DNA of 64,000 nt from the IMG/VR virus record IMGVR_UViG_3300027743_000025, positions 22,174-86,173 of that record. One strand, 5' to 3'. The notes below the pieces were generated by a model. It ran no database searches. It had not been told where the DNA came from and was given only the letters and a program-made list of their open reading frames with translations. Of this stretch, positions 31,992 to 49,715 are shown piece after piece; position 1 is the stretch's first letter, and each line of letters starts with the position of its first letter. This stretch comes from a virus. Both the position numbers and the translations under genes were made by a program.

Positions 31992-33635
31992 TTACGGGCA
32001 GCAGTACCCGGTGTCATCGAGCGGAGAAGTGATCCACAGTGGCAAGCCCCCGACGCTGGCCACGCTCTCGAAGATCTCGGAGAACTGCATGTAGTCGTTC
32101 GTCCGGACCAGCGCTGAATCCCGGATCAGACCGAGGTCCAGTGTGCCGCCGTCGAGCAGGAGCAGAGATCCCTCAGGGAAGAGAGCCCACTGAACCTGGC
32201 TCGGGAAGTCCGGCAGAGGCACCGGGGTTGCCAGGGTTGCCTCATCGAAGGGAACGTAGAACCCGCCCGGAGGAGCCGTTGTAGCCGCGCCGCCCGCGTC
32301 GGCCGCCGGCAGGGAAGCGGTCGGCATCCAGGTGTCCAGGGACCACGTCACCGTGATGCCCAGCTCATTGAGGATGCTGTTCAGCTCCGCCTCGGACATC
32401 CCGTAGTTGTCGGGAAGCCGGGCCGTCGAGTTCTCGGCCGTGACGCTGTCAGAGATCATCAGGTCGCGGAACCATGACGGGATGATCGCATGCAGCCGCT
32501 CGTTGTTGACCAGCCGGTTGACATCCCGCAGGTAAGCCGCCGCCCGGTGGATGGTCCGGATGAAGTCCCGGATCGCGCCGTACGCCATGGCCGGGCCGGT
32601 GACCAGCTTGGAGAGCGCCTTGATCTGCGAGAGCAGCACCGCCTCAGCGAACCGCGCCTGCTGAACCCGAAGCATCTCCGTGTTGGCCGTGACCATCTCC
32701 GGGAAGATCCGAGACTGGAGCACGCCGAACTTGATACACATCGTGATGGCCTGAACCTCGGCCGTCTGCTCCGGCGGGCAATCCGCCCGGATGCAGACCT
32801 TCCAGGTCAACTCGTCGGCCGGATCGACCGCTTCGTCGTCGTCACAGGTCCAGACAGCCACGCCGCCGGTCACGTCCGCGAGCTTTGGACCCTTGAAGTA
32901 CCGGATGCCACCACGGTCAGCTTGGAAGCCGGGAAGCGCGCCGCGCACCGGCCGGTCCGTGTCGCCGATCGTGTAGAGGTCGTAACGGGTCTCCAGCGGA
33001 GCACAGCAGCCGCCGGCCGCCACGATGGCTGCCTGGTTGGTCACGGCCTCGATCTTGGCCTTGTTCCCTTCCAGGTCACCCTGGTAGAGGATCCGGTCTT
33101 CCGGCGCCTTGGTCTTGATGGAAGCCACCACGACCTTCTCGCCATTGCCGCCGCTCAGGCCGTGGAGGGTGCGGATGCGCTTCGTGAAGGCGTCCGCGAA
33201 GTCCTTCAGGGTCGGAATTACAGTTCCAGCCGAGTAACCCGGGATGTCAGCGCCAGCGACCACGGAGGTCGTGGGCGCCGCCGTAACCGGCTCACGGTCA
33301 CGCGGCACGGTCAGAGCGCCGCCTGCTGTCTGCTGCTCCACCGGGTCACCTTCCTTAGCTTCGTCGTTGTTGTCTTCAGCAGCTGCGACCAGCTGCGGTT
33401 CCATAGCGGCTGGCACCGGAGTCTCAGCAGCCGGGGCCGCTTCGCTTCCGCCATTTGAGCGCTTCTCCAGCTCACTAGACACCTGGTCCAGCGCGTCAGC
33501 GAGAGCAGCCATGCGCACGTCGTCGGCCGCCTGATCGGCAGCGTCGAATGCCGCTGTGATGTCTGCCTGAAGGCTCGCGAGTTCTTCGTCAGTGAGGTTG
33601 GCGATATCTGCGAGCTTCTGAGCGAACTCGTCCAT
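31992..33635 (-). CDS. major capsid (hexamer) protein with N-terminal scaffold segment
   Basis: AAGGCCAPLETRYDL, LP.FQADRGGI, GGTLDLGL.RDS..V.TNDY..F.E; AAGGAGG RBS. Confidence 0.9.
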   Translation of the reverse strand: MDEFAQKLADIANLTDEELASLQADITAAFDAADQAADDVRMAALADALDQVSSELEKRSNGGSEAAPAAETPVPAAMEPQLVAAAEDNNDEAKEGDPVEQQTAGGALTVPRDREPVTAAPTTSVVAGADIPGYSAGTVIPTLKDFADAFTKRIRTLHGLSGGNGEKVVVASIKTKAPEDRILYQGDLEGNKAKIEAVTNQAAIVAAGGCCAPLETRYDLYTIGDTDRPVRGALPGFQADRGGIRYFKGPKLADVTGGVAVWTCDDDEAVDPADELTWKVCIRADCPPEQTAEVQAITMCIKFGVLQSRIFPEMVTANTEMLRVQQARFAEAVLLSQIKALSKLVTGPAMAYGAIRDFIRTIHRAAAYLRDVNRLVNNERLHAIIPSWFRDLMISDSVTAENSTARLPDNYGMSEAELNSILNELGITVTWSLDTWMPTASLPAADAGGAATTAPPGGFYVPFDEATLATPVPLPDFPSQVQWALFPEGSLLLLDGGTLDLGLIRDSALVRTNDYMQFSEIFESVASVGGLPLWITSPLDDTGYCCP

Positions 33636-33782
33636 GAGTCTGTTCCCTCCTTCTTTGGGCACACCTCAGTCAATAGCTGAAGAGTTACGCCCGGTTGGGT
33701 AGGAAAGGTCACTACCCGGATGGAGGGTCACTCGATACCCACAGAGTATGACACAGCGATCTGGGTCACAAGCCACACCCAC

Positions 33783-33813
33783 AGTTGACAGTGGTTGACC
33801 TGCTGTGTATAGT
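33783..33813 (+). promoter_or_regulatory. near-consensus promoter with tandem boxes
   Basis: TTGACA(33785)-17-TATAGT(33808); GTTGACC at 33794. Confidence 0.85.
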
Positions 33814-33854
33814 TGCCCTTGTACCGCTCACCACTACCACCCAGAGGAGTTCCC

Positions 33855-34166
33855 ATGAGTGAGAACAAGATCAACCTAGAGCCCATCCCCACCCAGCTGG
33901 ACACCAAGCCCCGCCACCGGATCTACTTCCGCCTCTTCTCCGCTGCCCAGCGTCTCGTCGGCGTGCCCGGCATGTCCCCGGCTCAGCGGATCGAAAACCT
34001 TGAGGTCATCCGGGAGAGCCTGCTGGATGCACTCGCAATGCTGGAGATCGACATCTCTACCCGCAAGGCTTTGGTTGACATTGAGGCAAACTTCCACACC
34101 ACTGCGGAGGAGCCCACCCAGACTGTTGAGGTTGAGGAGACCGATACCCCCGAGTGCCCCGAGTAA
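33855..34166 (+). CDS. hypothetical protein
   Basis: AGAGGAG RBS; own promoter and terminator. Confidence 0.8.
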   Translation: MSENKINLEPIPTQLDTKPRHRIYFRLFSAAQRLVGVPGMSPAQRIENLEVIRESLLDALAMLEIDISTRKALVDIEANFHTTAEEPTQTVEVEETDTPECPE

Positions 34167-34176
34167 TCCTCAGCAG

Positions 34177-34217
34177 GAGCGCCCACCGACTTAGGTCTGG
34201 TGGGCGCTTCGCTTATT
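34177..34217 (+). terminator. intrinsic terminator
   Basis: GAGCGCCCACC-GAC/TTAG/GTC-T-GGTGGGCGCTTC then GCTTATT. Confidence 0.7.
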
Positions 34218-34253
34218 GCTAGCCTACCCCTAAGGTGAGGTGGGAGGTTAGCG

Positions 34254-34562
34254 ATGAGACTGAAGTTGCTGTTGGTGGCACTGCCTATACTGCTGCTGGC
34301 CAACTGCGCAGCACCGGCTCAGACCTGGTCTTTCAAGATGCCCAACCTGGTGGGCCAGGATCTGCTTAAGGCCAAGGGTCGGTTGACACAGCTGGGATTC
34401 CCCATCGAGAACATCTCGGTATACGCAGGAGACTCAGTCCACGATCTTGGTGTGGAGTCTCGATGGGTAGTGGAAACACAAGAACCACCGCCCGGGACGG
34501 TGGTTCCTGTGTGCGAGGAATGCTACGTAAGCCTGATCATCATTCCACTGCTGGCGGAGTGA
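34254..34562 (+). CDS. PASTA-domain lipoprotein
   Basis: Signal peptide with lipobox LANC; MPNLVG...L..LG...WVVETQEP.PG. Confidence 0.75.
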   Translation: MRLKLLLVALPILLLANCAAPAQTWSFKMPNLVGQDLLKAKGRLTQLGFPIENISVYAGDSVHDLGVESRWVVETQEPPPGTVVPVCEECYVSLIIIPLLAE

Positions 34563-37286
34563 CTACTTGAACGGGGACACGATCTCGTCGTCCTTGAACT
34601 TCTTGGCCGCCTTGCTGTACAGGCCATTGATCTTAGACTGGATAGTGGCCCGGTCAGCCTGCGGAATGCTGGCCCCGCCCCGTGCACCCTTCAGCGCTGC
34701 TGCTGCCGCTGCGAGCCCGGAGTAAACGATCTGGAGCTTCCCGTTGACCACGTCAGCGATGGGGAGCTTCCACGATCCCTTGTTGTTCGGGTCAGCTTTG
34801 CTGTCGTGGTAGAGGAATCCCTGCGCCAGCTGCCCCGTGTCATAAGTGCCGTCCGACTTCTTGGCCCTAGCGAACATGCGGTTAGCTGCTGCTGCCCCAT
34901 CCCACGACCGACCCCTATCAGCAAAAGGGAGCCCTGAATCACCCCCCGCTGCCGCCGTGACCGGGTGAACCCGGTCGCGCAGCTTCTGGATCCTCAGCTG
35001 CTTCGCGGCCTCCCGCGCCCGCTGCACAGCCTCCGACGCCGGCTGTTCCACGGGAATGGCCGGCTCAGCCTCAGCCTCTTCTTGCTCGGCCTCCGGTTCG
35101 GCCTCCGGGGAAATGATCTCGACTTCGTCTGTCTCAGGGAGCTGCTCCGGCTCGGCCTCCACTGCTGCCGTTTCAGGCTCCTCCGTGAAGAGAGCCGTCT
35201 CCACAGCGGCCAGCCGCTCCAGCACGGCCGCGTCCGCCGTCATGCTGGCCTTGAGCACCGCGAGGGACCGCGCGCCGGCCGCCACCAGTGCGGTAACCGC
35301 GCCACTCGCGACCCTGGCCCGAGCGATCGGGAAGCCCGGCACGTTGACCTGGCAGACCGCGACCAGCTCCAGCGAGCCGTTGATGGGCCGCCAGTCCCCC
35401 GATGGGGCCGACGCGCGGAGCGAGCGGACCTGCTCAGGCTTGATGTCCGGCCGGAGCGCGCCGGCCACCCAGATCCCGAACTTGTCCTCCCCTACCACCA
35501 CGTCAGCGACCGCGCTGGCCGTGTTGTCGTAGTGGGCCACGGCGTGCCCAGCGTCCGCATTGAGCGGCGCGTGGCCGCCGGCCAGGGTCAGCTGGCCCAC
35601 GTTCACGTCCTTGCCGCTGGCCGTGCGCAGGGTGCCGGTGGTGAAGTAGCTGTAGTTAGACCGGGAGCGCGGCGGCTTGACGCTGCCGGGGAGCCCGATG
35701 TGCGCCTGGTGCCAGTCCGCGATGTGGCCGAAGACTCGGCCGCTGTCGTCGTGGGTCAGCGGTGTCAACCGCTCCAGACCGGGGTTGGCGAACCACTCGT
35801 CCGGGGGTGCCACCGGGAACCCGCCGGCCAGGACGGCGCGCACCAGGCCCACGTCGTCCAGTGCTTCTGTGTAGATGCCGTCCTTCAGCATGTCGACATT
35901 CCTTCCGTGATGATCACTCCATGCGCCGGCCACCAGGGCGGACAGCAGCGCCTGTTCGGTTGACATGGCCGATGCAGCATGGCCCCGGTTCCGGCCTCGG
36001 CCCGGCCACTTGCCCAGCACCCTCTTGTGAAGGTTCGCGCAGTAGCCCTCAGCCCGGCCGGGCATGTACTTGTTGAGCTGGTGGACGCACCGCTTGAAGT
36101 CTCCCGGAGCGCCCCACTTGATCTTGGCAGCACCCTTGCCCTCGGCCCAGTAGCGCCGGAGCTTCTCGGCCCGGGGGTCGGGGGAGACCGCTGCCGTGAC
36201 CCCGTCTATCTGCGCGATCACGTCAGACAGGGCCGGGTCATCCAGCTCTACCAGCGGCGGGGGGTTTACACCCTCCAGCTGCGCCAACAGCTCGGGGTCA
36301 TCGACCCATGACTTCTGGTCATAGCGCTGGACTTTCGGCCCCGGCTGGAGCCGGATCAGTGCGATCACCGCGCCGGGGTCCAGGTCATCGACCACAGCGA
36401 AGGGGGTCCAGTCTTCCTCGGCCACCGTGTCAACCGCTGCTGACAGCGGTGAGGCCATCCGGCTGATCCGGGAGCTGATCTTCTCTTGATCAGTCTGCGG
36501 GATCTGGAGGCTGGGAAGCAGCTCGGCAGCAGCAGTGAGGCCAGCCGAGACGATCTGAAGCTCACCGTTGACCACATCAGTGAAAGGAAGGAGCCAGGCC
36601 GCCTGCGTCTGCGGGTCCGCGTCAGGATCTCGGTAGAGGAATCCCTGGCTGAGCTTGCCCGTGTCGTAGGACCCATCCGTCTTCCTGGCCCGCGAGAACA
36701 GCCGGTTGACAGCAGCATCCCCATCCCACTTCCGAGCGCGGTCGGCAAACGGAAGGGTGAGGTCGCCGTTCACGGAAGCCAGCAGCGACAGATCCTGGTG
36801 CCCGGAATGCCGGAAGGCTGAGGGAGCCAGCCACGCCTGAGGCGTGTAGCAGCGCAGGGCCAGGCCTTCCGCGCCGGACAGCAGGGCATCCGCGAGGTCC
36901 ACCGCGTCCGGCATGGTGAGCAGGATCAGTGGGTCAGAGCCCTCCCAAGGCTCCCAGGCGCCGGCCGCTGTCAGGGTCTCGTAGGATGCCTCTCCCACCC
37001 GACGCACCAGCTGCCGATAGAGCATGTCGTCGGCCGCGTCCGCCGTGGCGTAGAACCCGATATCCTCGCAGTCTGAGTCCGGGCACTCCAGCGTCTCGCG
37101 GGCCGGCCGGCTCAGAGCCGAGAGCGCTGACTCCAGCGTGTCGTCCGCCCACTTCCCGCTGTCACCCCCGGATGCCGAGAGCGCGAGGAGCTGCCACGCG
37201 GGCACCTCATGCTGGCTGACTTCGCCGCGCAGACGCCGGGGAACCGGGTAAGCCTTGTTATATCCACACATGACCAAAGATGTCAT
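34563..37286 (-). CDS. capsid maturation protease polyprotein
   Basis: PPDEWF.NP, GRVFGHIA.W, SGDWR, VNVPGFP; LRRYW...GDF.RC...G.CANLH domain; duplicated WD...KLP.ADV domain. Confidence 0.85.
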   Translation of the reverse strand: MTSLVMCGYNKAYPVPRRLRGEVSQHEVPAWQLLALSASGGDSGKWADDTLESALSALSRPARETLECPDSDCEDIGFYATADAADDMLYRQLVRRVGEASYETLTAAGAWEPWEGSDPLILLTMPDAVDLADALLSGAEGLALRCYTPQAWLAPSAFRHSGHQDLSLLASVNGDLTLPFADRARKWDGDAAVNRLFSRARKTDGSYDTGKLSQGFLYRDPDADPQTQAAWLLPFTDVVNGELQIVSAGLTAAAELLPSLQIPQTDQEKISSRISRMASPLSAAVDTVAEEDWTPFAVVDDLDPGAVIALIRLQPGPKVQRYDQKSWVDDPELLAQLEGVNPPPLVELDDPALSDVIAQIDGVTAAVSPDPRAEKLRRYWAEGKGAAKIKWGAPGDFKRCVHQLNKYMPGRAEGYCANLHKRVLGKWPGRGRNRGHAASAMSTEQALLSALVAGAWSDHHGRNVDMLKDGIYTEALDDVGLVRAVLAGGFPVAPPDEWFANPGLERLTPLTHDDSGRVFGHIADWHQAHIGLPGSVKPPRSRSNYSYFTTGTLRTASGKDVNVGQLTLAGGHAPLNADAGHAVAHYDNTASAVADVVVGEDKFGIWVAGALRPDIKPEQVRSLRASAPSGDWRPINGSLELVAVCQVNVPGFPIARARVASGAVTALVAAGARSLAVLKASMTADAAVLERLAAVETALFTEEPETAAVEAEPEQLPETDEVEIISPEAEPEAEQEEAEAEPAIPVEQPASEAVQRAREAAKQLRIQKLRDRVHPVTAAAGGDSGLPFADRGRSWDGAAAANRMFARAKKSDGTYDTGQLAQGFLYHDSKADPNNKGSWKLPIADVVNGKLQIVYSGLAAAAAALKGARGGASIPQADRATIQSKINGLYSKAAKKFKDDEIVSPFK

Positions 37287-39970
37287 GATGCCGCCTCCCA
37301 GTGTGCCTCTCTCTGCAACTGCGCTACCTGGTCATTAGTGAGAATACGCTGATACTTCGCTCTCACTACCGTGTCCTCGAACGTCGTCTGGTCGACGGAG
37401 TTGAAGGCTTCATAGAGCGCGGCATGGTTATCCATAGTTGGCTCTGTCTTACGAACTGCGAACGTCGCGTTAGCCACTGCTTCCCGGACATCATCGAAAG
37501 TCTTGAGGCCGGCCTTGAAGGCATACAACATCGCGACCACATGATCGGTCCCGGAGGCAGTGCCGAAGACACCAGCAGCAGCAGCCACCGCGCCGGCCGG
37601 AGCAGCTGGAGCAACTGGAGGAACTCCGATGGCACCCGCGCCGGGCATCTCAGCAGAGTGGTCCAGGAGAGTAGCCGGCTTGGTGGTGTTGTCGTAAGAT
37701 GCCCAGCGGTCCATATAATCGGCGAGATCGTTGAAGTTGATGATGTTCTGGGTAGTGTCTCTCACCCTGTTCTTCTCGATGACCCTTGAGGGAACGTAGC
37801 GGCCACCAATGGTGTCATCGCTGTTCGCATCCCGGAGACGGTCAATACCGCGCCGGTGACGCTCTTGCACCCTCTTCAGGGAAACATCGATAGGAACGTC
37901 TACGAAAACTCCATCCACCGCGTAGCCCAGCTTCCTGAGATCGTCCACATTGACCGGTGGAGGATCACCGCCCATGGTGCCATCGAAGATGACGTTGTAG
38001 CCCTCAGCGATCAGTCGAGACTCAAACAGCATGGCTAGCCGACTGGACATCTTATGGATCAGGTCGGCCGTCTCCAGCTCTCCCATACCAGGGATATCTG
38101 GTGCGTCTCCCCGCTCTGCGATCCTCTCCTTGAAAAGGTCTGAGTTGATCTGCACCCAGTCCCTGTCTAGGATCTCCTCTCCGCCTACGGCTTCACTCAG
38201 GATGGTTGACTTACCCGCCCCCGGCAGTCCACCCAGGAGCAAAGACTTCCTACCTTGTGGTTTCGGCTTTCCAGCCTTAGTGACGGTCATCTCCGCATGC
38301 AGCTCATCAACGAGCTGCTCAAAGTACTCTTCTCGCTCGGTAGACCACTGGCCGTTAGAGTCTCTGAACGCATCTTCGTAAGCCAGTCCAGCTGCTCTAG
38401 CGTCTGCCAGGGTGTCATCCAGCCACTTCACATGTGCCTGGTATTCCGCATCAGTGAGCGGAGGCTGGCCCTTCACATTGACGTTGGGGGCCGGAGGCCG
38501 GCTAGCGATGAACTCCTGTAGCTTCTGGTCGTATTGCTCCAGGGAAAGAGTCGGCCGGTAGTTCGGATCAGCCGCTCTAGCTACGTCGACTTCCTCGATC
38601 GCGCTCAAGTTCTCAGTGAGGCTGCGGGGCAGAGTGGCCAACGACTTTGGAGCCATCATCACCTTGTCGTTGATGTCCCCTACCGGGATCACGTCAGGGA
38701 ATCCGGCTGCCGGGTCTGCGGGTATTGCATTCCCATCCCGGTCCACGTAGGAGACATGGGCGCCCTGAGGGGTGAGGTTGGTGATCTGGCCCCGGCGCCG
38801 ATCAGCCGTGCGGCTGGTGATCGGAGCGTTCTTGTCTGCGAAGACATTCACCAGGCCGAACTTCTCGATGAACGTGCCGTCCTTACCGCGCGGGTGCAGC
38901 CACTCTCTCCAGTTGATAGCCGCGATGACTGCCGGATGATCCAGCAACCTGTGCTCACGGGACTGCATCATCAAGGATCCGAAGATTCCAACCGGCTCAT
39001 CCCCATTGATGCACAGCTGCACGTAGTGCTTCGCGGCGGCCACGACGGCTGCCGCCGCCGTGGCTTCCTCAAAAGGGAGAGTCATCTCCTCGCTGTCAGA
39101 GGCGGGGAACTCCGGCAGTGTCTCGGGAGCGGTTTTGCCGAGCTGCCATTCCTGCGGGATCTTGTCGAGTGCCCCCAGAGCCTTTGCGCGCTTCACCACA
39201 TACCACCGGCTGTCGGGGTGGGTGATGGCATAGCGCACAGCCACCGGAAGATCATCCACCCGGTTGACAGACGGGATGTTCGCTCCAGATGCCACTACCG
39301 CTTCCTCCGGTTCGCCTACCGCCGGCTGTGCTTCTCCCGGCATCTCGATAACCTCGGCTTCTTCGCCAAGCAGCTTGGTCGGCAGATCAGCCACGCTAAT
39401 GGTCTTTCCGCTGGCATCGCCAGCGTCCCACACTGCCAGAGCGGATGGGGCCACCTGCACCAGGGACATATCGTCCAGCGTTGTGTTGCCCTCGGGGAGT
39501 GCGATCCATTCCCCGTCATACCGCACGAACGGTCCCATGCCAGTCTCGATAATCAGCGTGACGACTGTGTTGTCCGGAGCCACCACAGCGTCCAGTTGGA
39601 GTGCCAACATTCCTCCCCTCAAAATGTGAGCCTCAACCACGGTTAGCGGCTGCGGTACACCAGCGTCTGGAGCCAGAGTGATTGCATCATATGGGTCAAG
39701 TGGCCGGATCCGTATTGTCTCATCCGGAGCTGCCGGGTCAGAGAAGACAGCTGTCGCTGTCAAGACTCCTCCGCCCTCATCAACAGGTTCAGAGATCACT
39801 ACTCCACGCAGCTCATCCCCTTCGTCCCACACAAGCATGAGACCGTTTTCGCCAGTTTGTAGCTCCACGTCGGCACCATAACGAACCGAGGTCGTGTCAT
39901 ACGGCGCTGAAGTGATTGGATCAACTCTGTGGATGATCACCTCAATGACGGCCGGGTTGGGGGCTAGCAT
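37283..39970 (-). CDS. head-region polyprotein with zeta-toxin (P-loop kinase) domain
   Basis: GGLPGAGKS, INSD..K, NVIFDGTM, GGRYVP. Confidence 0.85.
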   Translation of the reverse strand: MLAPNPAVIEVIIHRVDPITSAPYDTTSVRYGADVELQTGENGLMLVWDEGDELRGVVISEPVDEGGGVLTATAVFSDPAAPDETIRIRPLDPYDAITLAPDAGVPQPLTVVEAHILRGGMLALQLDAVVAPDNTVVTLIIETGMGPFVRYDGEWIALPEGNTTLDDMSLVQVAPSALAVWDAGDASGKTISVADLPTKLLGEEAEVIEMPGEAQPAVGEPEEAVVASGANIPSVNRVDDLPVAVRYAITHPDSRWYVVKRAKALGALDKIPQEWQLGKTAPETLPEFPASDSEEMTLPFEEATAAAAVVAAAKHYVQLCINGDEPVGIFGSLMMQSREHRLLDHPAVIAAINWREWLHPRGKDGTFIEKFGLVNVFADKNAPITSRTADRRRGQITNLTPQGAHVSYVDRDGNAIPADPAAGFPDVIPVGDINDKVMMAPKSLATLPRSLTENLSAIEEVDVARAADPNYRPTLSLEQYDQKLQEFIASRPPAPNVNVKGQPPLTDAEYQAHVKWLDDTLADARAAGLAYEDAFRDSNGQWSTEREEYFEQLVDELHAEMTVTKAGKPKPQGRKSLLLGGLPGAGKSTILSEAVGGEEILDRDWVQINSDLFKERIAERGDAPDIPGMGELETADLIHKMSSRLAMLFESRLIAEGYNVIFDGTMGGDPPPVNVDDLRKLGYAVDGVFVDVPIDVSLKRVQERHRRGIDRLRDANSDDTIGGRYVPSRVIEKNRVRDTTQNIINFNDLADYMDRWASYDNTTKPATLLDHSAEMPGAGAIGVPPVAPAAPAGAVAAAAGVFGTASGTDHVVAMLYAFKAGLKTFDDVREAVANATFAVRKTEPTMDNHAALYEAFNSVDQTTFEDTVVRAKYQRILTNDQVAQLQREAHWEAAS

Positions 39971-39972
39971 GG

Positions 39973-42900: not shown

Positions 42901-45900
42901 CCCACCTAGGCCCTGGCCCTGAGACTTCAGGGTGGCATCAAGGAGATTCTGGAGCAGGTTGGGCTCAGCCTGTGGAGTAGTCGGCTCGGGGAACGGGTCA
43001 CCGTCCTCTTCAGACTGGTGGACCAGCGTCGCCTTATCCTCCGGTACCAGCGACATCACATGGTGGCTGATAGACGCAGATCCCAGGTTGCCATCTTCCT
43101 TTACCGGGAACCATGCTTTGCCGGGTCCAGCCTGCACATAGTAAGTATCTGTATCAATTACGTGGACTACTGATTCCCAGCTAGCAACAGTCCAGCCGCT
43201 GACGGTGTCCAGAGTAGCCACGGATCCCGGTCCCGGAGCTGGAGCCACGTCCACCACGTCAACCTGCGGGCTGAACGGGTCGTGGAACAAGGTCACCGCG
43301 TACGGCTCCCCGGTTGACAGGTACTTGTTGACGGCCGTGTTGACATCAACCGAGTCGTTACCGTCGATGTGATACCAGGCAGTGCTGGATGGCGTGGCAA
43401 TGTAATACTCGTTGCCGATCTTGGCAATCTGGTCTCCCGACTGGATAGTTACCCCGTACCCATTCGGGAGAGTGAGGAACTCAGTGCCGGTCACCTGATG
43501 GAAGTTCTTCAGGCCCAGAGGCCCTTCCAGGTCCCCCTCCCCGACCCACGTGCCGCCAGTGCCGGCGGCGTTCACCGTCCACATCTGCCAGCCGGAGGTG
43601 GTGTGCCGACGCCAGAATGTGCCTGCCCCGGAGACAAAGATCGAGTACTTAGCGTCGTCGTACTTGAGATTCTGGTTCAGTGCCCAGCCGGCCGCGTCCT
43701 GGCCCTGGTTGCCGGTCAGCTTGTGGTCGTCAGGAGTTCCCGGGCCGGCCTTCATCTTCTCGGCCATGGCGTGGGCTGCGTCTATCTGACCCTGCGTAAG
43801 CTCAGCATCTACGTAATCGGAGCCCTTCCGGGTTACCCGAATATTGGCCATGGGGCCGAAGTCAGTCGTAGACAGCAGATGCGGGGAAGGATTTCCGAGG
43901 TCTACGACCACAGCTGCCTTGTCATCCCCCAGTGGGAGGTTGTTCTCTACCACGATGAAGAGGTATTCACCAGCCTCGACTTCATCCCCCGGCTCCAGAT
44001 GGGGGATGATCTGGTGAGCCGGCAGGAACGCCCCGTCCTCGTCAAAGATGCTGGTCTCAGTCTTCTCAGTGAACGGAGACTCCGCGTCAAAGTAGCCAAC
44101 GGTGCCAGTAGAGAAGGAAACATAGCCGTGCCCAGCAGACTCAATTTGATCCACGTTGGTGACTAGGACAACTTCGTCACCGTGAAATACCGAGTCTCCC
44201 GGCTTCAGGGAGAAAACGTTTACCAGCGGACCACCGTGCGGTCCCGTCTTAGTTGGTGACTCCGGCACGCCGGCCGACTCCGGGATGACCGTGGGGGTCG
44301 TGTCAACCGTGAAGTCGTTGAGCGCAGTCTTCAGTACGGTGAATGGCGTCTCATTCTTGTCGATCATCCGCACTGTCGTGTCCGTGATGGCGATGATCTG
44401 GTAGCTGTTGTCAGGGCTGCTGATCGGGCTGACCTTGTGGCCGACCTTCAGCACACCACTGTCAATCCAGTCAGCCAGCGTCTTCGCCTCGTCGGACTGG
44501 TTGACAGGCTCAGCTGCCGAAACCACCGCGCCAGCATTGTCCGGAGCGGCAGGCACCTCCACCGGCTCCGGCTCCGGAATGTCAACCGCCGCGACCGACT
44601 CCTCAGTGATGGTCACCGTGCCGACTGACTTGCGCTTCCGGACTCCGGCCGCATTCTCGATGAACACGAACTTGCCATCGGGGCTGACCATCACGACCTT
44701 GCCCTCATGGCCATCCTTGGCCTTGGCCGACATGCCCAGCTGCGGAACCTTGCCGTCTCCAGTCAGGGGGGTCTTGGCGCCGTCCACGTTGGCAGCCGGA
44801 GTCTTGCCCGGCTGCGTCAGTGTGGAGGAAGCCTTCATCAGCTCCTTGCCGTTCTCATCCTTGACGACGGAGCTGTAGCCCTTCTTCTTGACGTAGGTGT
44901 AGGTCTTGCCGTCTTTCTTGGAGACCACCTTGGCACCCGGCGCCGCCTCGGTCCCGTCACCCAGGATGGAGTTCTTGCTGTCCGCCGTGGCGACAGCAGC
45001 AGCAGAAGACTCGGCAGCCGCCTTGATGTCTTCCTTGACCTGAGCCTCTACGGTGGCCGCCATGCCGGTCTTCTGCTGAGGCTCGGACACCTGCACCTCA
45101 GGCTCCGGAACAGGTACCGGCTCCAGCTGTTGGACAACCTGGTTAACCTCTGCCTGTGCGGCTTCTGGCAGGTTCGGCTTCTGCGCCTCCGGCGGCGGAT
45201 CCCAGCGGTGCACGGTGTAGGCGCCGGTCTGCATGTGCTCCGTGTCCAGCACTACTGAGTTCTGGTAGCCCTCCGGACGAATCATGATCTTCTTTTTGGT
45301 GGGGGAGACCCCCATCACCTCCATCACCTGCCCGAAGGGATCGGTGATCTTGTCTCCGCGCTCGAACATGACGCTGTGGAGGTCAGTGGAGTTCAGCACC
45401 GCGCCGTCATGTGGCCGGTCCATGGAGTTCAGCAGTGGGCTCTGGTAGTGGACCTTCGTGCTAGAGGTGTACTTGTCCAGCAGATCCCAGCGCTGATTTT
45501 GCAGTTGGTCCGGATCCATCAGCGAGCCGTCCGACTCATTGACCCCGATCCTGATCGTCTTGGAGTTCAGCCGGATGTAGTCCCCGGGGGAGGACATAGT
45601 GATGGCCTGGCCCAGGGCCATCGGGAACCACTTGCGGGATAGACCGCTGTTCTCAGCCACGTCCGGGATGTCTATCGGCTTGGAGGCTTCCGGGAGTGGG
45701 AGATCGTAGTAGCCAGCAATGTATTTACGGCGCGACTTGAGCGTGTCAGCCAAGGACTGAGGTAGTCCACGCTCCGCAACCAGGTCATCGATCTCTTCCG
45801 GAGAGATAGCCAGAACTCGAACGGCCCCATCTAGCTCATCCTCCTTGGGCATGTTGCCCTCGCCGTAGATGGGAGCCTTTTTGCCGCCGCGCATGGACTC

Positions 45901-48210
45901 CAGCTCGATCACCTTGTCACCGAATGCGCTCCCCTTGGGAGCGCCCTGCGCGCGGTAGGTGAGAGCACCGCCGTTGTCGATCCGCCAGGATGTGCCTTCC
46001 TTGTCAACCAGCACGTTGTCCCATGTCAGTCCGAACACATCCCAGTTGGACAGCCAAGCATCAACGACAAAGTTCTTACGGATCTGCGTCAACCACTCCT
46101 TGTCCTTCAACTTATCGTTGATAGTCTCACTGAGTTCCTGGCCCTCCACGATCTCGGAGTAGATGTTCTTCCCGTCGTAGTCCACATTAGGCACTGGCAC
46201 ACCGGCTGCTGAGTACAGGTCGTTGGCCAGTTCCTCAACCTTGCCGTGGTCCGGGCTCTTGGGCTTCTTGACGTAGAACTTCTTGGCCGGACCGCCAGCT
46301 GGGTCCGGGATGGTGTACATCCCGCCCTCATTGCTGCCGCCCTGCCCGCCGATCTTCGTGGCGCCTGCATCGTCTTTAGTGAGGTGGGCGATCTTCTTGG
46401 GTGCACGATAGACGGAGCCAGGGGAGAGAGTCAGCTCCTCGGCCCCGGGGGTAGGCGTGCCGGACAGGTCAGATGGCTGCACCTTCAGCTTGGCCTTGTT
46501 GTCGGCACCCTTGAAGATGTCCATGACCTGGCCGTAGTTCCACTTGCCGTTCTTCAGGAACTTGACGATCCCGAACTTGTTGATGAACCGGCCGTCTGCC
46601 CCGCGAGGGTGCTCCCACTCCTCGAAGACTGGAGCCGCCACGACCGGCTCCGGCAGGAGCTTCTGCCAGCCTGTGTCGTCTCCGGCCAGCGAGGCATACA
46701 TGACGTTGTTGCCGGCCTCATCGCTCACCGTGAGGTAGGACTTCTCGTCCATGAAGTCAGGGCCGTGGGTGACCTTCATGGATACGGTGTCGTTGTCAGG
46801 AAGATCATGTGCCCCGCTGAGGGTGAAGTCATACTTGCTCTCCCCGATCCAGAGAGAGAGCGTGTCAAAAGATACTGTGGACGGTAGGTGGCTAGGGTCC
46901 ATGACCTCGATCAGGAAGTCGTTGCCGTAACCAAGCGTGATGTGTGGAACGAATTCTGGATATTGCTCTACGCTCTCCATCTGGTATGCGATCACCGGGT
47001 CGGCAGTGAGAACACATCGAAGATCCGAAAGAGTCTCGGATTCCAGCAGCAGCACGGCCGCGTCGTGATCTCCCAGCCGGCCGCGCCCGTTCACCTCGGT
47101 CTCGATGGGCGTGCACTGCTTGGCCAGGTCCCCGAGACACTGGAGCACGTGGTCCAGCTCGTCGGTTGACAGAGCCGCGCTCATGTATACCAGCGTGGTA
47201 TGTGGGTCATCATCAACAACCAGTGCGTTCACCGGGTCATCAGCTGCCGTGCGACAGACGATCACAGCAGAAGGCACTTCCTCCACAAGGTCCGGCTCGT
47301 CCAGGATCAGGTCAGCAAGCAGAGCCTTAGGGAAGTTGTGTCCTACGGGCGGCCCGTAGTCATACCCCATCGTGTAGTCGTGTACGAACGGGGAGAGGTC
47401 GGCCGACCCCGTGATCGAGTTCAGTTCCTTGGTGCGCCGCTTGATCTCATTCCTGGCCCTCTTGATCCTGGCTTGGGATACCCGGACCCCTAGCTCCAGC
47501 ATCTTCTTCTTGGCCCGAAGAGTGCGCAACTCATTGACACCCTTGGAGGTCAGACCAGGTTCCCCGGCGGCGACATCGGCTGCCTTCTCTAGCTCCTTGA
47601 TACGGGCATTGTGGGCCTTGGATCCCTCCACTTGCTTGGCCAGCTCAGCAGTCTGAATTGCCAGAGCATCTACCGCACGTTCGATATTCAGCTTGGCCTT
47701 GGCTTTGGCGTTTTTGAGCTTCTTGGCCTTGGCTTTGTCAGCAGCAGCAGAGCCTCCTCCTCCTCCTCCTCCTCCTCCTCCTCCCCCTCCTCCTCCGCCC
47801 TTGCCGCCGCCCTTGAACTTGGCAAAGGAAGGTATGCCTCCGTTATCTGTTGCCTTAGACAGATCTCGGCCCTCTATGGCAAATGAGTTGAGAGTAGTGG
47901 ATTCCAGTGTTCCAGTCGGCTTCAGTCCATGCTTCTGCTGGTAGTCCTTGAGTGCTCGCGCTGTCTCCGGTCCGAAGTAGCCGGTGGCTGGGATGTTGTA
48001 GCCGGCAGCCCGCAATGCCTCTTGAAGGCGCGTGACGGCTGGCCCGGATGCTCCTTGGCCGAGCCCGCCGCTTTTAGTGTTGCCCTGCCCAGACGTGCTG
48101 AACTTGCCAGAAGGATCCCTCTTGATCTTGGATTCTTCAAATGCTCGCTGCCGCTCGGACGGGTCCTTGGCGCGGCTTGGCCGCTCCCGCTTTGGTTGAG
48201 TCACGTTCAA
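39973..48210 (-). CDS. giant polyvalent virion protein (PG-binding, 2H phosphoesterase, PI3/4K-HipA-like kinase, SH3-like repeats, unknown C-terminal domain)
   Basis: G..GPAV..LQ..L...G.FG..T..AL; HTTL and HITL; GSN.GG...YVK...E..A..LY...DAWL.NWD...DN...IDNGGAL; start TTG 48210 or GTG 48204. Confidence 0.85.
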   Translation of the reverse strand: MNVTQPKRERPSRAKDPSERQRAFEESKIKRDPSGKFSTSGQGNTKSGGLGQGASGPAVTRLQEALRAAGYNIPATGYFGPETARALKDYQQKHGLKPTGTLESTTLNSFAIEGRDLSKATDNGGIPSFAKFKGGGKGGGGGGGGGGGGGGGGSAAADKAKAKKLKNAKAKAKLNIERAVDALAIQTAELAKQVEGSKAHNARIKELEKAADVAAGEPGLTSKGVNELRTLRAKKKMLELGVRVSQARIKRARNEIKRRTKELNSITGSADLSPFVHDYTMGYDYGPPVGHNFPKALLADLILDEPDLVEEVPSAVIVCRTAADDPVNALVVDDDPHTTLVYMSAALSTDELDHVLQCLGDLAKQCTPIETEVNGRGRLGDHDAAVLLLESETLSDLRCVLTADPVIAYQMESVEQYPEFVPHITLGYGNDFLIEVMDPSHLPSTVSFDTLSLWIGESKYDFTLSGAHDLPDNDTVSMKVTHGPDFMDEKSYLTVSDEAGNNVMYASLAGDDTGWQKLLPEPVVAAPVFEEWEHPRGADGRFINKFGIVKFLKNGKWNYGQVMDIFKGADNKAKLKVQPSDLSGTPTPGAEELTLSPGSVYRAPKKIAHLTKDDAGATKIGGQGGSNEGGMYTIPDPAGGPAKKFYVKKPKSPDHGKVEELANDLYSAAGVPVPNVDYDGKNIYSEIVEGQELSETINDKLKDKEWLTQIRKNFVVDAWLSNWDVFGLTWDNVLVDKEGTSWRIDNGGALTYRAQGAPKGSAFGDKVIELESMRGGKKAPIYGEGNMPKEDELDGAVRVLAISPEEIDDLVAERGLPQSLADTLKSRRKYIAGYYDLPLPEASKPIDIPDVAENSGLSRKWFPMALGQAITMSSPGDYIRLNSKTIRIGVNESDGSLMDPDQLQNQRWDLLDKYTSSTKVHYQSPLLNSMDRPHDGAVLNSTDLHSVMFERGDKITDPFGQVMEVMGVSPTKKKIMIRPEGYQNSVVLDTEHMQTGAYTVHRWDPPPEAQKPNLPEAAQAEVNQVVQQLEPVPVPEPEVQVSEPQQKTGMAATVEAQVKEDIKAAAESSAAAVATADSKNSILGDGTEAAPGAKVVSKKDGKTYTYVKKKGYSSVVKDENGKELMKASSTLTQPGKTPAANVDGAKTPLTGDGKVPQLGMSAKAKDGHEGKVVMVSPDGKFVFIENAAGVRKRKSVGTVTITEESVAAVDIPEPEPVEVPAAPDNAGAVVSAAEPVNQSDEAKTLADWIDSGVLKVGHKVSPISSPDNSYQIIAITDTTVRMIDKNETPFTVLKTALNDFTVDTTPTVIPESAGVPESPTKTGPHGGPLVNVFSLKPGDSVFHGDEVVLVTNVDQIESAGHGYVSFSTGTVGYFDAESPFTEKTETSIFDEDGAFLPAHQIIPHLEPGDEVEAGEYLFIVVENNLPLGDDKAAVVVDLGNPSPHLLSTTDFGPMANIRVTRKGSDYVDAELTQGQIDAAHAMAEKMKAGPGTPDDHKLTGNQGQDAAGWALNQNLKYDDAKYSIFVSGAGTFWRRHTTSGWQMWTVNAAGTGGTWVGEGDLEGPLGLKNFHQVTGTEFLTLPNGYGVTIQSGDQIAKIGNEYYIATPSSTAWYHIDGNDSVDVNTAVNKYLSTGEPYAVTLFHDPFSPQVDVVDVAPAPGPGSVATLDTVSGWTVASWESVVHVIDTDTYYVQAGPGKAWFPVKEDGNLGSASISHHVMSLVPEDKATLVHQSEEDGDPFPEPTTPQAEPNLLQNLLDATLKSQGQGLGGTFDNYVAQVDDIVLKSDTSAGTTYLVKGEDGKYHTIVNGTPEAAGYEESAMKSFIEATNTGQLIAGVKMSVAQGKLDQYDATTAPDLSGPGPASPVPQKINNVGFVTGLPQFEGLTYELQPGEELYTTGTNAYVSVPGTGPDVENLQVHQIYHPYGETEMQKVQFATYGDGFTKPLVKIAFAPQSATPVQSAASGANVSIGAPHPSTLEKSTATTLGEIGLEPGDWFYVDNGDNDPDYPPKYMKVKDYNGALAGGWIDVDIYTVDQKTDTASFTQSKSFKQSDTAPSTTNVYVMKKAAPPPAPVVVKPGAPALPTEDETLAWGGALTKNGYIPSVGMHVAGKGPMHGKIVSLSKNKQSAVVLTSTGEKSTRLVSALRLDMEEYTPYKAPLPPSVVPQGMALAVDTPAEALGKTLQDGKWRAIVTSVPGIRNGEMVTVRAVGPSGKKYNRVIFSLTKEQRATLASNLATGAMEEQGDWVRSKKLTGDIAVGERVALKPSASSKPENQGAWRPDNSGNPPNFEVVAVEDTPDGNKKVTFKSLGSTDVVTTPWASGHTYTVNTWDPTKIKVLSPGQFTLSQTAKDKGWTIAHDGGLSAMHADGTLDVEPGQAVPAHKSAFSDFGSSTNVRLVASNGVVIEVVEPSGSYKNDSRYGMTSVSLPEGATDADLSAALAELGLGGYSPMTQSSAKQQVRVMLSTMVKWNQADVENTQGLSDEQIFKLAGDQMGIPDLGWQDVRVGVDESIGKVSFFWSDRAITAMKAKSKMNLVVKGGSRADAETVVSAALYGQVNSMNKRLNGAVYAPSGKGLGKSAQSDSGGYAGHGAYASAKSYTRLPDHNDQASYVSGGIMSYYRPEAVYGRIGDMRASLGDVFGNPTYGEENVFKNILNWGNVKDYYISGGLSPEQTSMIAVPSQKEVDSAIAKLKAKGIVSINGIPLEKYIVTMAVAKTMKPSDLPPLYLPPNIRNILDLPESYEV
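47753..47796 (-). repeat. (GGA)n trinucleotide run encoding poly-Gly
   Basis: About 14 near-perfect CCT units on the plus strand. Confidence 0.9.
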
Positions 48211-49715
48211 CCCCCCAGGATCTGCTGCGCTGAGTCAGGCATCGGTACCGGAGACTCTGCCACGTTCTGATCCCGCTGCTCCGACAGCACGTGTGGGAGT
48301 GCCACGTTCAGCAGGGAGACTGTGGTATCTGGAGGCAGGACTCCCTTAGATGCGACCAGCATGAGCGCCAGCTCCTGCTCAGTGGGGGCATCAGTCTCGG
48401 CCAGCCCGTTCTCCCGGCGCCAGGCTTTCGGCCCCACCAGGAAGTGCTCGAACCCGATCGTCACCTCATCCGACTGGTTGGGTCGGGTCACAATCTGCGA
48501 GGGGTCATACCAGACGACTACCCGGCTGACATCGGCCTCTGCGAAGCCCTCGGAGAGCAGCCGGATACGCAGGTACATGTCAGTGACAGCGTCGGACAGT
48601 GCCAGTGCCAGCGGCTCGATGTTGGCCTTATACAGGTTGTCGTCGATGACCACCGCGTTGCTGTACTTGACAGCCGCCAGGCCGGCCACCATTTCCTTAG
48701 GAACGTCGATGCCCTGAAGGATGCGCTCCAGCGAGCGCTCCGCCCGGTTGACAAGCCACTCATCACTGCTGCGCTCGAAGGTGATGTGTCGGATGGCCTG
48801 CCCCAGGTCGGACGGGCCGGTGACAACCATGGGCACTACGGAGCTAGCGCTGCCCTCATCCGAGACGGGAGTAACCATGGCGTCCATCAGCTCGGCCAGG
48901 AAAGCGTTGCCGGGGTCAACCACGGCCTGCTCTCCGTCTTCCGCGCTGGGATCTGCCACCGTAGCGGACGGTACGGTGACACCATCAGGGACGTACAGAA
49001 GGCCGGCGTTCAGCCGGCTGCGAGTCGCTGAGCGGACCAGCCGCTGTAGCATCAGGAGTTCCTCGATCGAGTCCGTGAGGGACATCAGAGAGGAATCCGG
49101 CTCCTTGGAGTACTCCGGGTGCTCGCGCCATACCCGGGCGATGTACGTAGAAGTAGGAAGTGGTTGCTGTGGTCCCCCGCGCATGGGCTGATAGAGAACC
49201 GAATTCTGCTCTACCTTGACTTCCTTTGTGGACTTGAAGACCCACTTGCCGGATCCCGGCAGCTGCATGAAGTAGACCTCTCCGGCCACGTTCATGTTCA
49301 GAGCGAAGGACCGAACCTTTGAGCTGAAGTTGTCAGTCGTGAACTCCAGCATGATCTCCTGAGCACGCTTCGCCAGGTCGGCGTCTACCTTGCCCTTCTC
49401 AGCCGCCTCGACGATGGAGGTCGGAGCCTGCTCAGGGTCCAGCACGACGGCCGGGTAGAGGCGTATCCGAGAGAGAATGCTGCCTACCAGGTTGAACCCG
49501 TAGTGGATCTCCCCCACTCGCTCGTACCCCACCCAGGCATCGGTCTGCCAGACCTCCCAAGGCCGCGAGCCCGGCTGCATCTCTTTGACCTTAATACGCT
49601 CGGTTGAAGCCGTAATAGGCCGTTGCGCGTTATATGCGGCAGGTATGGCCGGCTGCGCTTTGGCCCGCCGGGGTGGCTCCGGATTGCGCGGGGTATCGCG
49701 CGTGAAGATGCCCAT
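48207..49715 (-). CDS. portal protein
   Basis: WQ..AW..Y..VGE, N..VAGE, RVW..HP..S.EPDS, SRLNAG.L.VP. Confidence 0.88.
   Translation of the reverse strand: MGIFTRDTPRNPEPPRRAKAQPAIPAAYNAQRPITASTERIKVKEMQPGSRPWEVWQTDAWVGYERVGEIHYGFNLVGSILSRIRLYPAVVLDPEQAPTSIVEAAEKGKVDADLAKRAQEIMLEFTTDNFSSKVRSFALNMNVAGEVYFMQLPGSGKWVFKSTKEVKVEQNSVLYQPMRGGPQQPLPTSTYIARVWREHPEYSKEPDSSLMSLTDSIEELLMLQRLVRSATRSRLNAGLLYVPDGVTVPSATVADPSAEDGEQAVVDPGNAFLAELMDAMVTPVSDEGSASSVVPMVVTGPSDLGQAIRHITFERSSDEWLVNRAERSLERILQGIDVPKEMVAGLAAVKYSNAVVIDDNLYKANIEPLALALSDAVTDMYLRIRLLSEGFAEADVSRVVVWYDPSQIVTRPNQSDEVTIGFEHFLVGPKAWRRENGLAETDAPTEQELALMLVASKGVLPPDTTVSLLNVALPHVLSEQRDQNVAESPVPMPDSAQQILGG

Follow-up and report, generated by a model that had tools for sequence, protein, structure and literature searches.

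We analysed a 64,000-nucleotide stretch of viral DNA (the window), which comprises bases 22174-86173, i.e. the right-hand 64 kb, of IMG/VR record IMGVR_UViG_3300027743_000025, and investigated a recurring element that carries the motif HPRxxxGxF in two long genes of its head region. These genes encode a giant polyvalent protein of 2745 residues and a protein of 895 residues with a zeta-toxin-like domain (the zeta protein). The element, which we call the header, is almost certainly a real conserved domain that marks the starts of modules, and sequence comparison suggests that it is a constant handle before exchangeable enzymes (a zeta-type kinase, a kinase-like domain, ADP-ribosyltransferases, and others). 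An initial annotation of the window had proposed that the head maturation protease cuts the head-region proteins at shared V-x-A-A sites into tagged effectors that are packaged and injected; the presence in the virion, the cleavage, and the injection are features that we infer. The record, from an uncultured actinophage-like virus, is 86,173 bases long and 100% complete according to CheckV, and the window has a G+C content of ~0.6.

Homology and predicted structure of the header

The motif HPRxxxGxF was found at residue 359 of the zeta protein (38896-38870) and at residue 534 of the giant protein (46611-46585), both on the minus strand. The initial annotation had regarded the surrounding segments as homologous, and this was borne out. 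BLASTP of zeta residues 340-379 against giant residues 516-554 gave 20 identities in 40 positions (E 1e-7), and a hidden Markov model (HMM) of the header core, searched over all six frames of the window, scored 41.4 bits on the zeta copy and 35.9 bits on the giant copy, the next match being at 13.3 bits. The two copies and the joints before them are the following.

46381..46632, minus strand: header copy 1, giant residues 527-610, FEEWEHPRGADGRF loop and small beta-barrel ending APKKIAHL
46633..46644, minus strand: joint VVAA, giant residues 523-526, candidate cut site just before the header
38636..38917, minus strand: header copy 2, zeta residues 352-445, WREWLHPRGKDGTF loop and small beta-barrel ending APKSLATL
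38918..38929, minus strand: joint VIAA, zeta residues 348-351, candidate cut site just before the header

The header is not the peptide of ~20 residues that was first described but, in the AlphaFold model, a folded domain of ~95 residues. In an alignment of 25 copies, drawn both from the window and from viral contigs related to it, conservation continued for ~75 residues further, to AP-x-K-A-x-L. The aligned copies consist of a short helix ending in hydrophobic-hydrophobic-A-A, a W-x-E-x-L-HPRG-x-DG-x-F-I-x-K loop, and a small barrel. The AlphaFold2 prediction from the 25 sequences had a mean predicted local distance difference test (pLDDT) score of 87.1 and a predicted template modelling (pTM) score of 0.70, with residues 31-120 above 90, and packed the HPRG loop on a small barrel of five strands. 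The short helix before the barrel (model residues 23-29), which holds the hydrophobic-x-A-A residues, was predicted with lower confidence (pLDDT about 66-76). A further idea, that the HPRG loop is self-cleaving or a protease site, was dropped for want of any support; the model predicts an ordered loop (pLDDT >90).

A Foldseek search of the PDB with the header model gave no match at E<=1e-3 (best E 2.8e-2). The best Z score in a wide VIA-align comparison was 6.2 (RecD2 SH3-like, Tudor, KOW, and CarD folds), in a range (Z <8) that the tool describes as common; the model suggests an SH3/Tudor/KOW-like barrel. In a viral structure library, the best matches were uncharacterised Gordonia phage proteins, namely the 1479-residue header protein of GodonK (gp67; E 6.9e-4) and a 774-residue protein of Sixama (E 1.8e-3). 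The header idea is testable now, because these isolated Gordonia phages carry it. A complex prediction of residues 17-125 of the header alignment with the portal protein gave interface scores (ipSAE) of 0.00 and 0.00, for which controls were not run, and speaks neither for nor against binding.

Distribution of the header and its partner domains

A header profile built from three rows was searched against 1.84 billion proteins and matched 182 representative proteins (clusters) at E<=1e-3, 33 of them at E<=1e-10; 150 of the 182 matches were listed. The loose expression [HK][PA]R...G.[FWY] was present in 149 of the 150 listed matches, with 287 instances, up to 7 per protein and 150-500 residues apart. 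The column profile of the header reads [LV][TV]AA-x2-[WF][DN][EP]-x-L-HPR-[GD]-x-[DG]-G-[RK]-F-I-[ED]-K-x-G-x-V.

Partner domains were determined by a Pfam scan of 65 of the 150 listed matches, drawn from those of 250-1350 residues. Zeta_toxin was found in 22, AAA_33 in 13, ART-PolyVal in 4, ADPrib_exo_Tox, PG_binding_1, 2H, and LigT in 2 each, and RNase_T, portal, DUF3990, and PI3_PI4_kinase (9.5e-5) in 1 each. All 31 zeta-like domains among the 150 listed matches were preceded by a header, the median distance being 189 residues, and in one protein (P0012) motif copies at 214 and 420 flank the ART-PolyVal domain (residues 249-403). The proposal that a tag precedes enzymes in head genes therefore holds in that a constant element stands before enzyme modules, but not with respect to the size of the tag or to its supposed third variant, which is described below with the giant protein.

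Some metagenome proteins (L050:1411-7974, P0012, P0018, P0044, and P0054) contain 5-7 copies of a shorter header motif (DFDE.KHPRD..GRFG), apparently without a barrel, and the modules of ~150-400 residues that these copies separate are unassigned. Cluster look-up for the many-copy header proteins gave one name, a hypothetical protein of an Acidobacteria metagenome-assembled genome (MAG). In the window itself, outside the head module, an open reading frame (ORF) of 190 residues (14396-14968, plus strand) has EEDDKQPRDKHGRFASK at its end, where Gln replaces the His of a weakly HPR-like motif that scored 13.3 bits with the core HMM (E 0.0011 within the window); the ORF matched no Pfam or PHROG family.

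Other search routes were less productive. A word-based homologue search with zeta residues 335-385 yielded only 2 proteins from 2 candidates, and none of 50,697 phage records was matched at E<=0.01 by tblastn with 101 zeta residues surrounding the motif, since the header is too short and too divergent for that route. The header is widespread and apparently undescribed; in the library searched, which covered the paper on polyvalent proteins in its main text, no printed description was found of the HPRG header, of the RWYV tail that the protease shares, or of the Ala-Ala/Ala-Ser site (for the latter two, see below).

Header joints as module borders

The strongest new evidence concerns the joints. 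Judged by comparison with the genes of relatives, both flagged header joints are true module borders. The zeta protein consists of an N-terminal protein (residues 1-218), an RWYV tail, a linker, the header, the zeta-toxin kinase, and a C-terminal domain.

37283..39970, minus strand: zeta protein, 895 residues, ORF with a PF06414 domain
37772..38275, minus strand: zeta-toxin-like P-loop kinase, zeta residues 566-733, Walker A GLPGAGKST, PF06414 5.2e-16

The zeta-toxin domain that had been noted downstream of the header was recovered: PF06414 (Zeta_toxin) scored 59.1 bits at residues 566-733 against a cut-off of 22.3, the Walker A loop is intact, and the zeta structure PDB 1gvn was matched at 3.7e-5. 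The first ~288 residues of the zeta protein form a gene of their own in six relatives (L005, L006, L007, L014, L016, and L024), where the header plus zeta domain form the adjacent gene. That adjacent gene opens with a leader of 20-40 residues, followed by VLTA[AS], the header, and the zeta domain, and the residues in the same column as zeta VIAA are VLTAS, VLTAA, or IVAA in relatives.

The orthologue in the closest relative, P0004 (672 residues; L004:16690-18714, on an 86.5-kb contig), is 73.7% identical to the zeta protein over residues 1-459, unrelated to it beyond the header end, and devoid of the zeta domain. The ~210-residue C-terminus of P0004 had no Pfam match; its Y-K-G-I-N ... F-E-L-Q-F-H-T pattern may reflect a RelA/SpoT-type nucleotidyltransferase. 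On this alignment, the two proteins differ by an enzyme cassette that is swapped behind the header.

The giant protein gave a similar picture. The residues aligned to its VVAA joint are VTAAG, ITAAV, or VIAAG in orthologues, and the giant proteins of L016, L018 (the GodonK genome), and L012 begin with a header. Its 2H phosphoesterase is a stand-alone gene of ~210 residues right after the portal gene in L023, L025, L029, L030, L031, L033, and L034, which are without a header gene. From these comparisons, the three long genes between portal and capsid (2745, 895, and 907 residues) are fusions of modules that are separate in relatives. The earlier view of the V-x-A-A sites as domain boundaries thus stands for the two header-adjacent joints, which match gene borders in relatives and the swap breakpoint, whereas the bare V-x-A-A list was not significant.

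Modules of the giant protein

In the giant protein, a peptidoglycan (PG)-binding and coiled-coil part is followed by a 2H phosphoesterase, then by the header and a kinase-like module, and finally by a long variable body and ~660 conserved C-terminal residues.

39973..48210, minus strand: giant polyvalent protein, 2745 residues, ORF with PF01471 at residues 55-108 and PF13563 at residues 334-454
48100..48141, minus strand: supposed third header variant FEESKIKRDPSGKF, giant residues 24-37, upstream of the PG-binding domain
46711..47271, minus strand: 2H phosphoesterase (LigT-like), giant residues 314-500, Pfam 2_5_RNA_ligase2, 2.6e-7
45571..46380, minus strand: kinase-like module, giant residues 611-880, conserved in the orthologue alignment

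The third variant that was said to open the giant protein, FEESKIKRDPSGKF, scored -3.4 bits with the core HMM and was not significant. Its one parallel is a matter of context: the protease of L024 has WDEEKHPRGEKGSSNGGKF followed by a PG_binding-like segment. In regard to the kinase that was said to follow the header, the module is conserved in orthologues, but searches for a family were empty (no Pfam match at E<=0.1, no PHROG, no PDB profile match at E<=1). The nearest named clusters in a language-model atlas were PI3_PI4_kinase, LepB_N, and HipA_2 at 0.91-0.92 (clusters partly with PF00454, PF18640, and PF20613), and a PI3/4-kinase/HipA-like identity of residues 611-880 is only a lead from that model.

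The C-terminal ~660 residues (residues 2084-2745; 41961-39976) are the most conserved part of the giant protein across relatives (46% identity in L007, 32% in L024). They matched no family and are a candidate anchoring or structural domain. A run of ~20 glycines, GGGKGGGGGGGGGGGGGGGGS, lies at residues ~133-153 (about 47750-47815), between the PG-binding domain and a Lys/Ala-rich coiled coil; PDB matches of this region to antibody linkers were rejected as spurious, being due to the glycine run. Pfam and PHROG scans of nine and five pieces, taken from the giant body, the zeta N-terminal protein, the protease N-domain and repeats, and ORF 14396-14968, gave no family.

Genomic context

On the minus strand, the gene order is terminase, portal, giant, zeta, protease, capsid, and tail. 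The neighbours of the giant and zeta genes are the following.

52092-53615, minus strand: large terminase, Terminase_6N/6C (Pfam)
48207..49715, minus strand: portal protein, 502 residues, phrog_776, E 1.1e-90
34563..37286, minus strand: protease polyprotein, 907 residues, phrog_18402 head maturation protease, 1.3e-55 (residues 495-672), and phrog_859
31992..33662, minus strand: major capsid protein, 556 residues, with a helical scaffold-like N-terminal region, phrog_777, 4e-69
30297-31949, minus strand: major tail protein, PHROG/Pfam family match

The relatives of the capsid protein are large actinophages. It matched 801 phage records, every one below 60% identity; the closest was Arthrobacter phage Mimi (39.4%), and many Gordonia, Microbacterium, and cluster B Mycobacterium phages were also matched. 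The order portal, very large protein, protease, and capsid recurs in Mimi and in Gordonia phage GodonK. Among 34 metagenome loci, 17 have a portal, protease-core, capsid, or terminase homologue beside the HPR-bearing ORF, and most of the others are contigs under 5 kb. In 12 of the 17 viral loci, the HPR-bearing ORF directly follows the portal homologue; in 11 of these it is an orthologue of the giant protein, and in the 12th (L019) it is unrelated. Four loci have an extra header-bearing gene between protease and capsid (L042:14203-16239, L044:5023-7617, L046:14692-16698, and L049:11458-12801); the cargo genes, if such they are, are therefore not confined to the portal-proximal slot. A search of 185,579 species genomes with a narrow pattern gave one confirmed relative, on a MAG contig, so that the header carriers look like free phages and not like prophages or plasmids.

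This context bears on the possibility that the proteins are late intracellular enzymes (host takeover, lysis aid, exclusion) that never enter the virion, the header being a common regulatory or oligomerisation domain. The PG-binding domain of the giant protein matches endolysin PHROGs, and the weak HPR-like motif of ORF 14396-14968 lies outside the head module, as such enzymes might predict. However, even distant relatives strictly keep the slot between portal and protease/capsid, the portal stop overlaps the start of the giant gene, and the domains form the set that has been predicted for polyvalent proteins packaged in capsids (PMC5512222). We consider an intracellular role very improbable, whereas the giant and zeta proteins are probably virion cargo.

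The RWYV tail

39140..39316, minus strand: RWYV tail, zeta residues 219-277, opened by VVAS^GA (39287-39298; ^, candidate cut position), found by HMM

A second module precedes the header in the zeta protein. It spans ~55 residues with the pattern ..IP.[IV]....DL..A[IV]RY...HP..RWYV.KRA.ALG...IP..W, and its VVAS position is conserved in relatives. The HMM of this RWYV tail gave 33 domain hits, which include the C-terminal ends of stand-alone zeta N-terminal and 2H proteins (e.g. L007:18487-19353 and L023:2227-2865). In P0128, P0117, P0096, L012, L013, and L016, the tail stands directly before G[LV]TAA..HPRG. It also matches the C-terminal tail of the L033 protease (L033:3406-7140; hmmsearch E 0.0026), and hhalign against the protease C-terminal tails of six relatives gave a probability of 68.6% (E 4.6e-5) over 41 columns.

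In phage HK97, the C-terminal tail of the prohead protease targets the protease into the capsid. Because the RWYV tail resembles a protease tail, it is a good candidate for a loading signal if that tail carries the protease into the procapsid, and it may be at least as good a candidate as the header. It could even be the loading signal outright, with the header doing another job on the mature enzyme, e.g. tail exit or binding of DNA or a host target. Such a division of labour would fit the presence of the tail at the ends of stand-alone proteins and before headers elsewhere, its alignment to the protease tail of L023-type phages, and the fact that header-less phages still have 2H plus RWYV after the portal. 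The homology is modest, though; the giant protein of the window has a header but no RWYV match, and the window protease ends in another repeat (R2, below) that matches neither module. We regard this division of labour as somewhat improbable, and the idea that the header itself is the loading tag appears equally so. The preferred reading, in which the two proteins are cargo cut by the prohead protease, depends on the sites considered next.

Candidate processing sites

The initial annotation had quoted eight hydrophobic-x-A-(A/S) strings as sites in the head genes, and all eight are present on the minus strand.

Capsid: AIVAAGG, residue 212 (33029-33009)
Protease: LLASVNGD, residue 168; VTAAVSPD, residue 363; VTAAAGGD, residue 776
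Zeta: VVASGA, residue 225; VIAAINW, residue 348
Giant: VVAAPVF, residue 523
Portal: ITASTE, residue 34

The loose motif hydrophobic-x-A-[AS] was counted against shuffled sequences. It occurred 9 times in the capsid protein (3.9±1.8 in shuffles), 11 times in the protease (7.0±2.6), 7 times in the zeta protein (5.0), 14 times in the giant protein (9.6), 4 times in the portal (2.4), and 5 times in the terminase (2.3). A sharpened form, [VIL][TV]A[AS], occurred 16 times in the five head proteins against 3.19±1.74 expected, a count reached by 0 of 2000 shuffles, with 5 against 0.43 in the capsid protein and 5 against 0.65 in the protease; 36 control ORFs outside the head region gave 9 against 6.1±2.5, which 17% of 500 shuffles reach. 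This form was defined after seeing the data, which tells against the argument drawn from these counts.

Positions before the header were examined with a strict form, [VILMF][VILTAS]A[AGS]. Such a site begins at offset -11 or -10 from the His in 85 of about 280 instances, with a background of 0.37% per position. Since the AA columns were themselves part of the header profile, a separate count was made for the 133 copies outside its selection: 32 of them have a strict site at -14..-7, against 73 of 2740 random windows from the same proteins, a ~9-fold enrichment. The expression LRxRVHG..[VL]TA[AG] is found both before the protease tail and before the headers of P0010, P0024, P0033, P0040, and P0042.

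Conservation in relatives was investigated for the portal, capsid, and protease. The protease consists of an N-domain, R1 (residues 172-285), a middle domain, a phrog_6439 module (residues 368-436), the core (residues 478-718), an acidic coiled coil, and R2 (residues 780-907). The candidate sites are the following.

49605-49616 (ITAS), minus strand: portal N-terminal processing site RPITAS^TE, residues 32-39
33276-33287 (VTAA), minus strand: capsid maturation site PVTAA^P, residues 124-129
33015-33026 (IVAA), minus strand: capsid maturation site AIVAA^GG, residues 212-218
Protease sites: LLAS, residues 168-171; VTAA, residues 363-366; VTAA, residues 776-779

All 14 aligned portals have the form R-x-[ILM]-[TV]-A-[SA] behind a leader that is variable. 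Both capsid motifs are conserved in an alignment of 12 sequences, where P-[VI]-[VTL]-A-[SA] stands in front of the conserved core and [IL][TV]A[AS]GGCCAP follows 85 residues further on. The capsid site of the initial annotation, AIVAA^GG, is thus present and conserved, but it is not distinguishable from the second candidate, PVTAA^P. The AlphaFold2 capsid model from the 12-row alignment was poor (mean pLDDT 48.3), so that the mature N-terminus is not placeable. Guidance from the literature was limited: in the parts consulted, an actinophage capsid preprint describes the cleavage sites that separate the delta domain from the N-arm as not predictable, and a cluster J capsid paper was set aside because it covers another capsid family. 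In an alignment of 13 protease relatives, VVTAS-type residues end the N-domain and LRxRVHG..[VL]TA[AG] precedes the C-terminal tail.

Several observations weigh against cleavage at these sites and against the wider proposal. The loose V-x-A-A motif, which had been offered as a signal of head proteins, is close to its shuffled frequency in every protein, with a like rise in the terminase, and the site motif has low information. The protease site VTAA^VSPD was not upheld, the relatives having LLAY^TSPDP. The strict site is absent from 101 of the 133 unselected header copies (76%). Hydrophobic-x-A-A may be structural and not a cut site, because it lies in a predicted short helix and follows a conserved leader of ~25 residues in zeta-type proteins; likewise, capsid VVVASIK and [IL][TV]A[AS]GGCCAP may be fold elements. 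Phage_Mu_F had no Pfam match in the giant, zeta, or protease proteins at E<=0.01, nor in their pieces at E<=0.1. No function is readable from the header barrel, because its fold matches are generic (Z at most 6.2). A literature search for virion proteomics of GodonK, Sixama, or GMA2 returned none.

Two alternatives draw on these observations. Most of the eight listed sites could be coincidences of an Ala/Val-rich proteome, with only the two header-adjacent ones meaningful; the near-random loose counts, the raised terminase, the unconserved VSPD site, and a capsid site that may be a fold element would all be expected. That view is doubtful, since the sharpened motif is enriched in head proteins only and relatives conserve the positions in the portal, the protease tail, the capsid, and zeta VVAS. 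Alternatively, the proteins could be uncut multidomain polyvalent proteins, hydrophobic-x-A-A being the helix end of header and tail modules that recurs by homology, with no protease code. The helical position of the AA residues (model residues 23-29), the conserved leader, and the many header copies lacking a strict site are consistent with this, and the virion RNA polymerase of phage N4 is packaged unprocessed (PMC5512222, in the parts consulted). However, the motif is kept at the border between variable and conserved parts of header-less proteins (portal, 14/14; capsid; protease tail), it is enriched in the capsid protein and the protease, and pLDDT dips at the site (66, between 76 and 90). 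We consider the uncut state rather unlikely. The proposal of a shared site before the tag is accordingly retained in part: fixed-offset enrichment and conservation in portal, capsid, and protease relatives speak for it, but bare V-x-A-A is not significant in the window. The chance that cleavage occurs at these joints may be put slightly below even.

Some further features of the protease were observed. R1 (36432-36773) and R2 (34566-34949) are copies of a ~115-residue domain, LPFADR.R.WDG.AA.NR.F...WKLP.ADVVNG.L.IV, which had no Pfam match; in the closest relative, L022, a single copy occupies the first position. Kinship of R1/R2 with the RWYV tail or with the protease tail of relatives was rejected (hhalign probabilities 0.9% and 0.2%). 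The protease had no Pfam and no PDB sequence match, and the capsid profile against PDB sequences was also empty. A protease homologue of 1066 residues (L024:5194-8394) contains the inserted HPRG variant WDEEKHPRGEKGSSNGGKF and then a PG_binding-like segment that resembles the N-terminus of the giant protein (BLASTP 2e-4); header-type modules can therefore also occur inside a protease gene.

Discussion

We propose that the giant and zeta proteins would be head-internal polyvalent cargo built into the procapsid during assembly. The prohead protease, which is present in the same module (phrog_18402, 1.3e-55, residues 495-672), would cut them at hydrophobic-[TV]-A-[AS] joints and would also trim the portal, the capsid protein, and itself. 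The cargo would then leave the head with the DNA, each enzyme bearing the header as a constant handle, and the step served by the header could be loading, exit, or recognition of a host target. This explanation as a whole, from cargo through cleavage to release, has about an even chance of being correct. A more specific three-part code for large actinophages is improbable as a complete scheme. In that code, the RWYV tail, borrowed from the protease's own C-terminal tail, would load the protein, an assemblin-like hydrophobic-[TV]-A-^-[AS] site would be cut, and the HPRG/Tudor-like header, staying on every released enzyme, would direct exit or the first contact with the host, with cassettes swapped as in polymorphic toxins.

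The choice of capsid-borne proteins is known in detail for few models (T4, phiKZ-like phages, P22, and N4). If our proposal is true, the header would be a sequence rule by which injected effectors could be found in uncultured actinophages; these would include zeta-type kinases, ADP-ribosyltransferases, and 2H phosphoesterases and may counter host signalling. The header would also be a handle for loading foreign proteins into capsids and one more case in which cassettes are exchanged behind a conserved junction.

Polyvalent proteins, capsid-targeting peptides, and prohead processing at one motif are already known. The following comparisons rest on the consulted parts of the papers cited. The phage polyvalent proteins described by Iyer, Burroughs, Anand, de Souza, and Aravind (2017, PMC5512222) are very large multidomain proteins encoded beside portal and terminase genes, with zeta-toxin-like kinase, 2H phosphoesterase, ART-PolyVal, and peptidoglycan-directed domains; their predicted fate is packaging and injection. 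The proteins of the window agree with this description in their domains and their gene context. The giant protein has at least two distinct effector-type domains (PG_binding_1 and 2_5_RNA_ligase2, plus the conserved kinase-like module), the zeta protein has two effector-type parts (the N-terminal protein and Zeta_toxin), and both are encoded beside virion genes in a portal-terminase phage. They differ in that their modules are set off by a constant header with a candidate cut site and in that Pfam found no MuF or zincin peptidase domain; in the main text of PMC5512222 the HPRG header is absent, 'HPR' occurring solely inside HHPRED.

MuF-fused polymorphic toxins (Jamet et al. 2017, PMC5576092) likewise combine a constant, head-associated N-terminal part with variable toxin modules behind it and are encoded after the portal gene. 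Those toxins belong to temperate phages, whereas the header carriers look like free phage contigs. The exchange of cassettes has a further parallel in polymorphic toxin systems with their pre-toxin boundary motifs, e.g. of the VENN type; such motifs were reportedly described by Zhang et al. in 2012 (PMC3482391). There, too, a conserved element marks the joint for cassette exchange, the breakpoint here being at the header end; the motif, the carrier (phage head genes), and the delivery route are different.

The cleavage consensus of herpesvirus assemblin is (V/L/I)-x-A^S, which resembles the candidate site. The assemblin/scaffold polyprotein UL26 has release and maturation sites (PMC4498786). 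By layout alone, it is also alike in joining a protease to a scaffold-like coiled coil and in having a cut site just ahead of its C-terminal capsid-binding tail, although its virus is eukaryotic.

The closest experimentally known system, by analogy, is the head maturation of phages SPN3US and T4. The SPN3US protease gp245 recognises the motif AXE at 14 sites, and its 9 substrates include portal, capsid, and ejection proteins (PMC10052503); T4 gp21 with its capsid-targeting sequences is named in the discussion of the same paper. In both, and as predicted here, one protease acts on a short common motif, portal, capsid, and cargo bear N-terminal propeptides, and the protease bears a C-terminal propeptide; the propeptides are thought to target proteins into the prohead. 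In T4, a targeting peptide is followed by a cleavage site, and the order RWYV tail, cut site, and header would mirror that logic. Unlike SPN3US and T4, the virus studied here has a protease of another family and a candidate motif, hydrophobic-[TV]-A-[AS], that is not AXE or LxE, and its cuts would separate the modules of a polyprotein and leave a folded header on each product.

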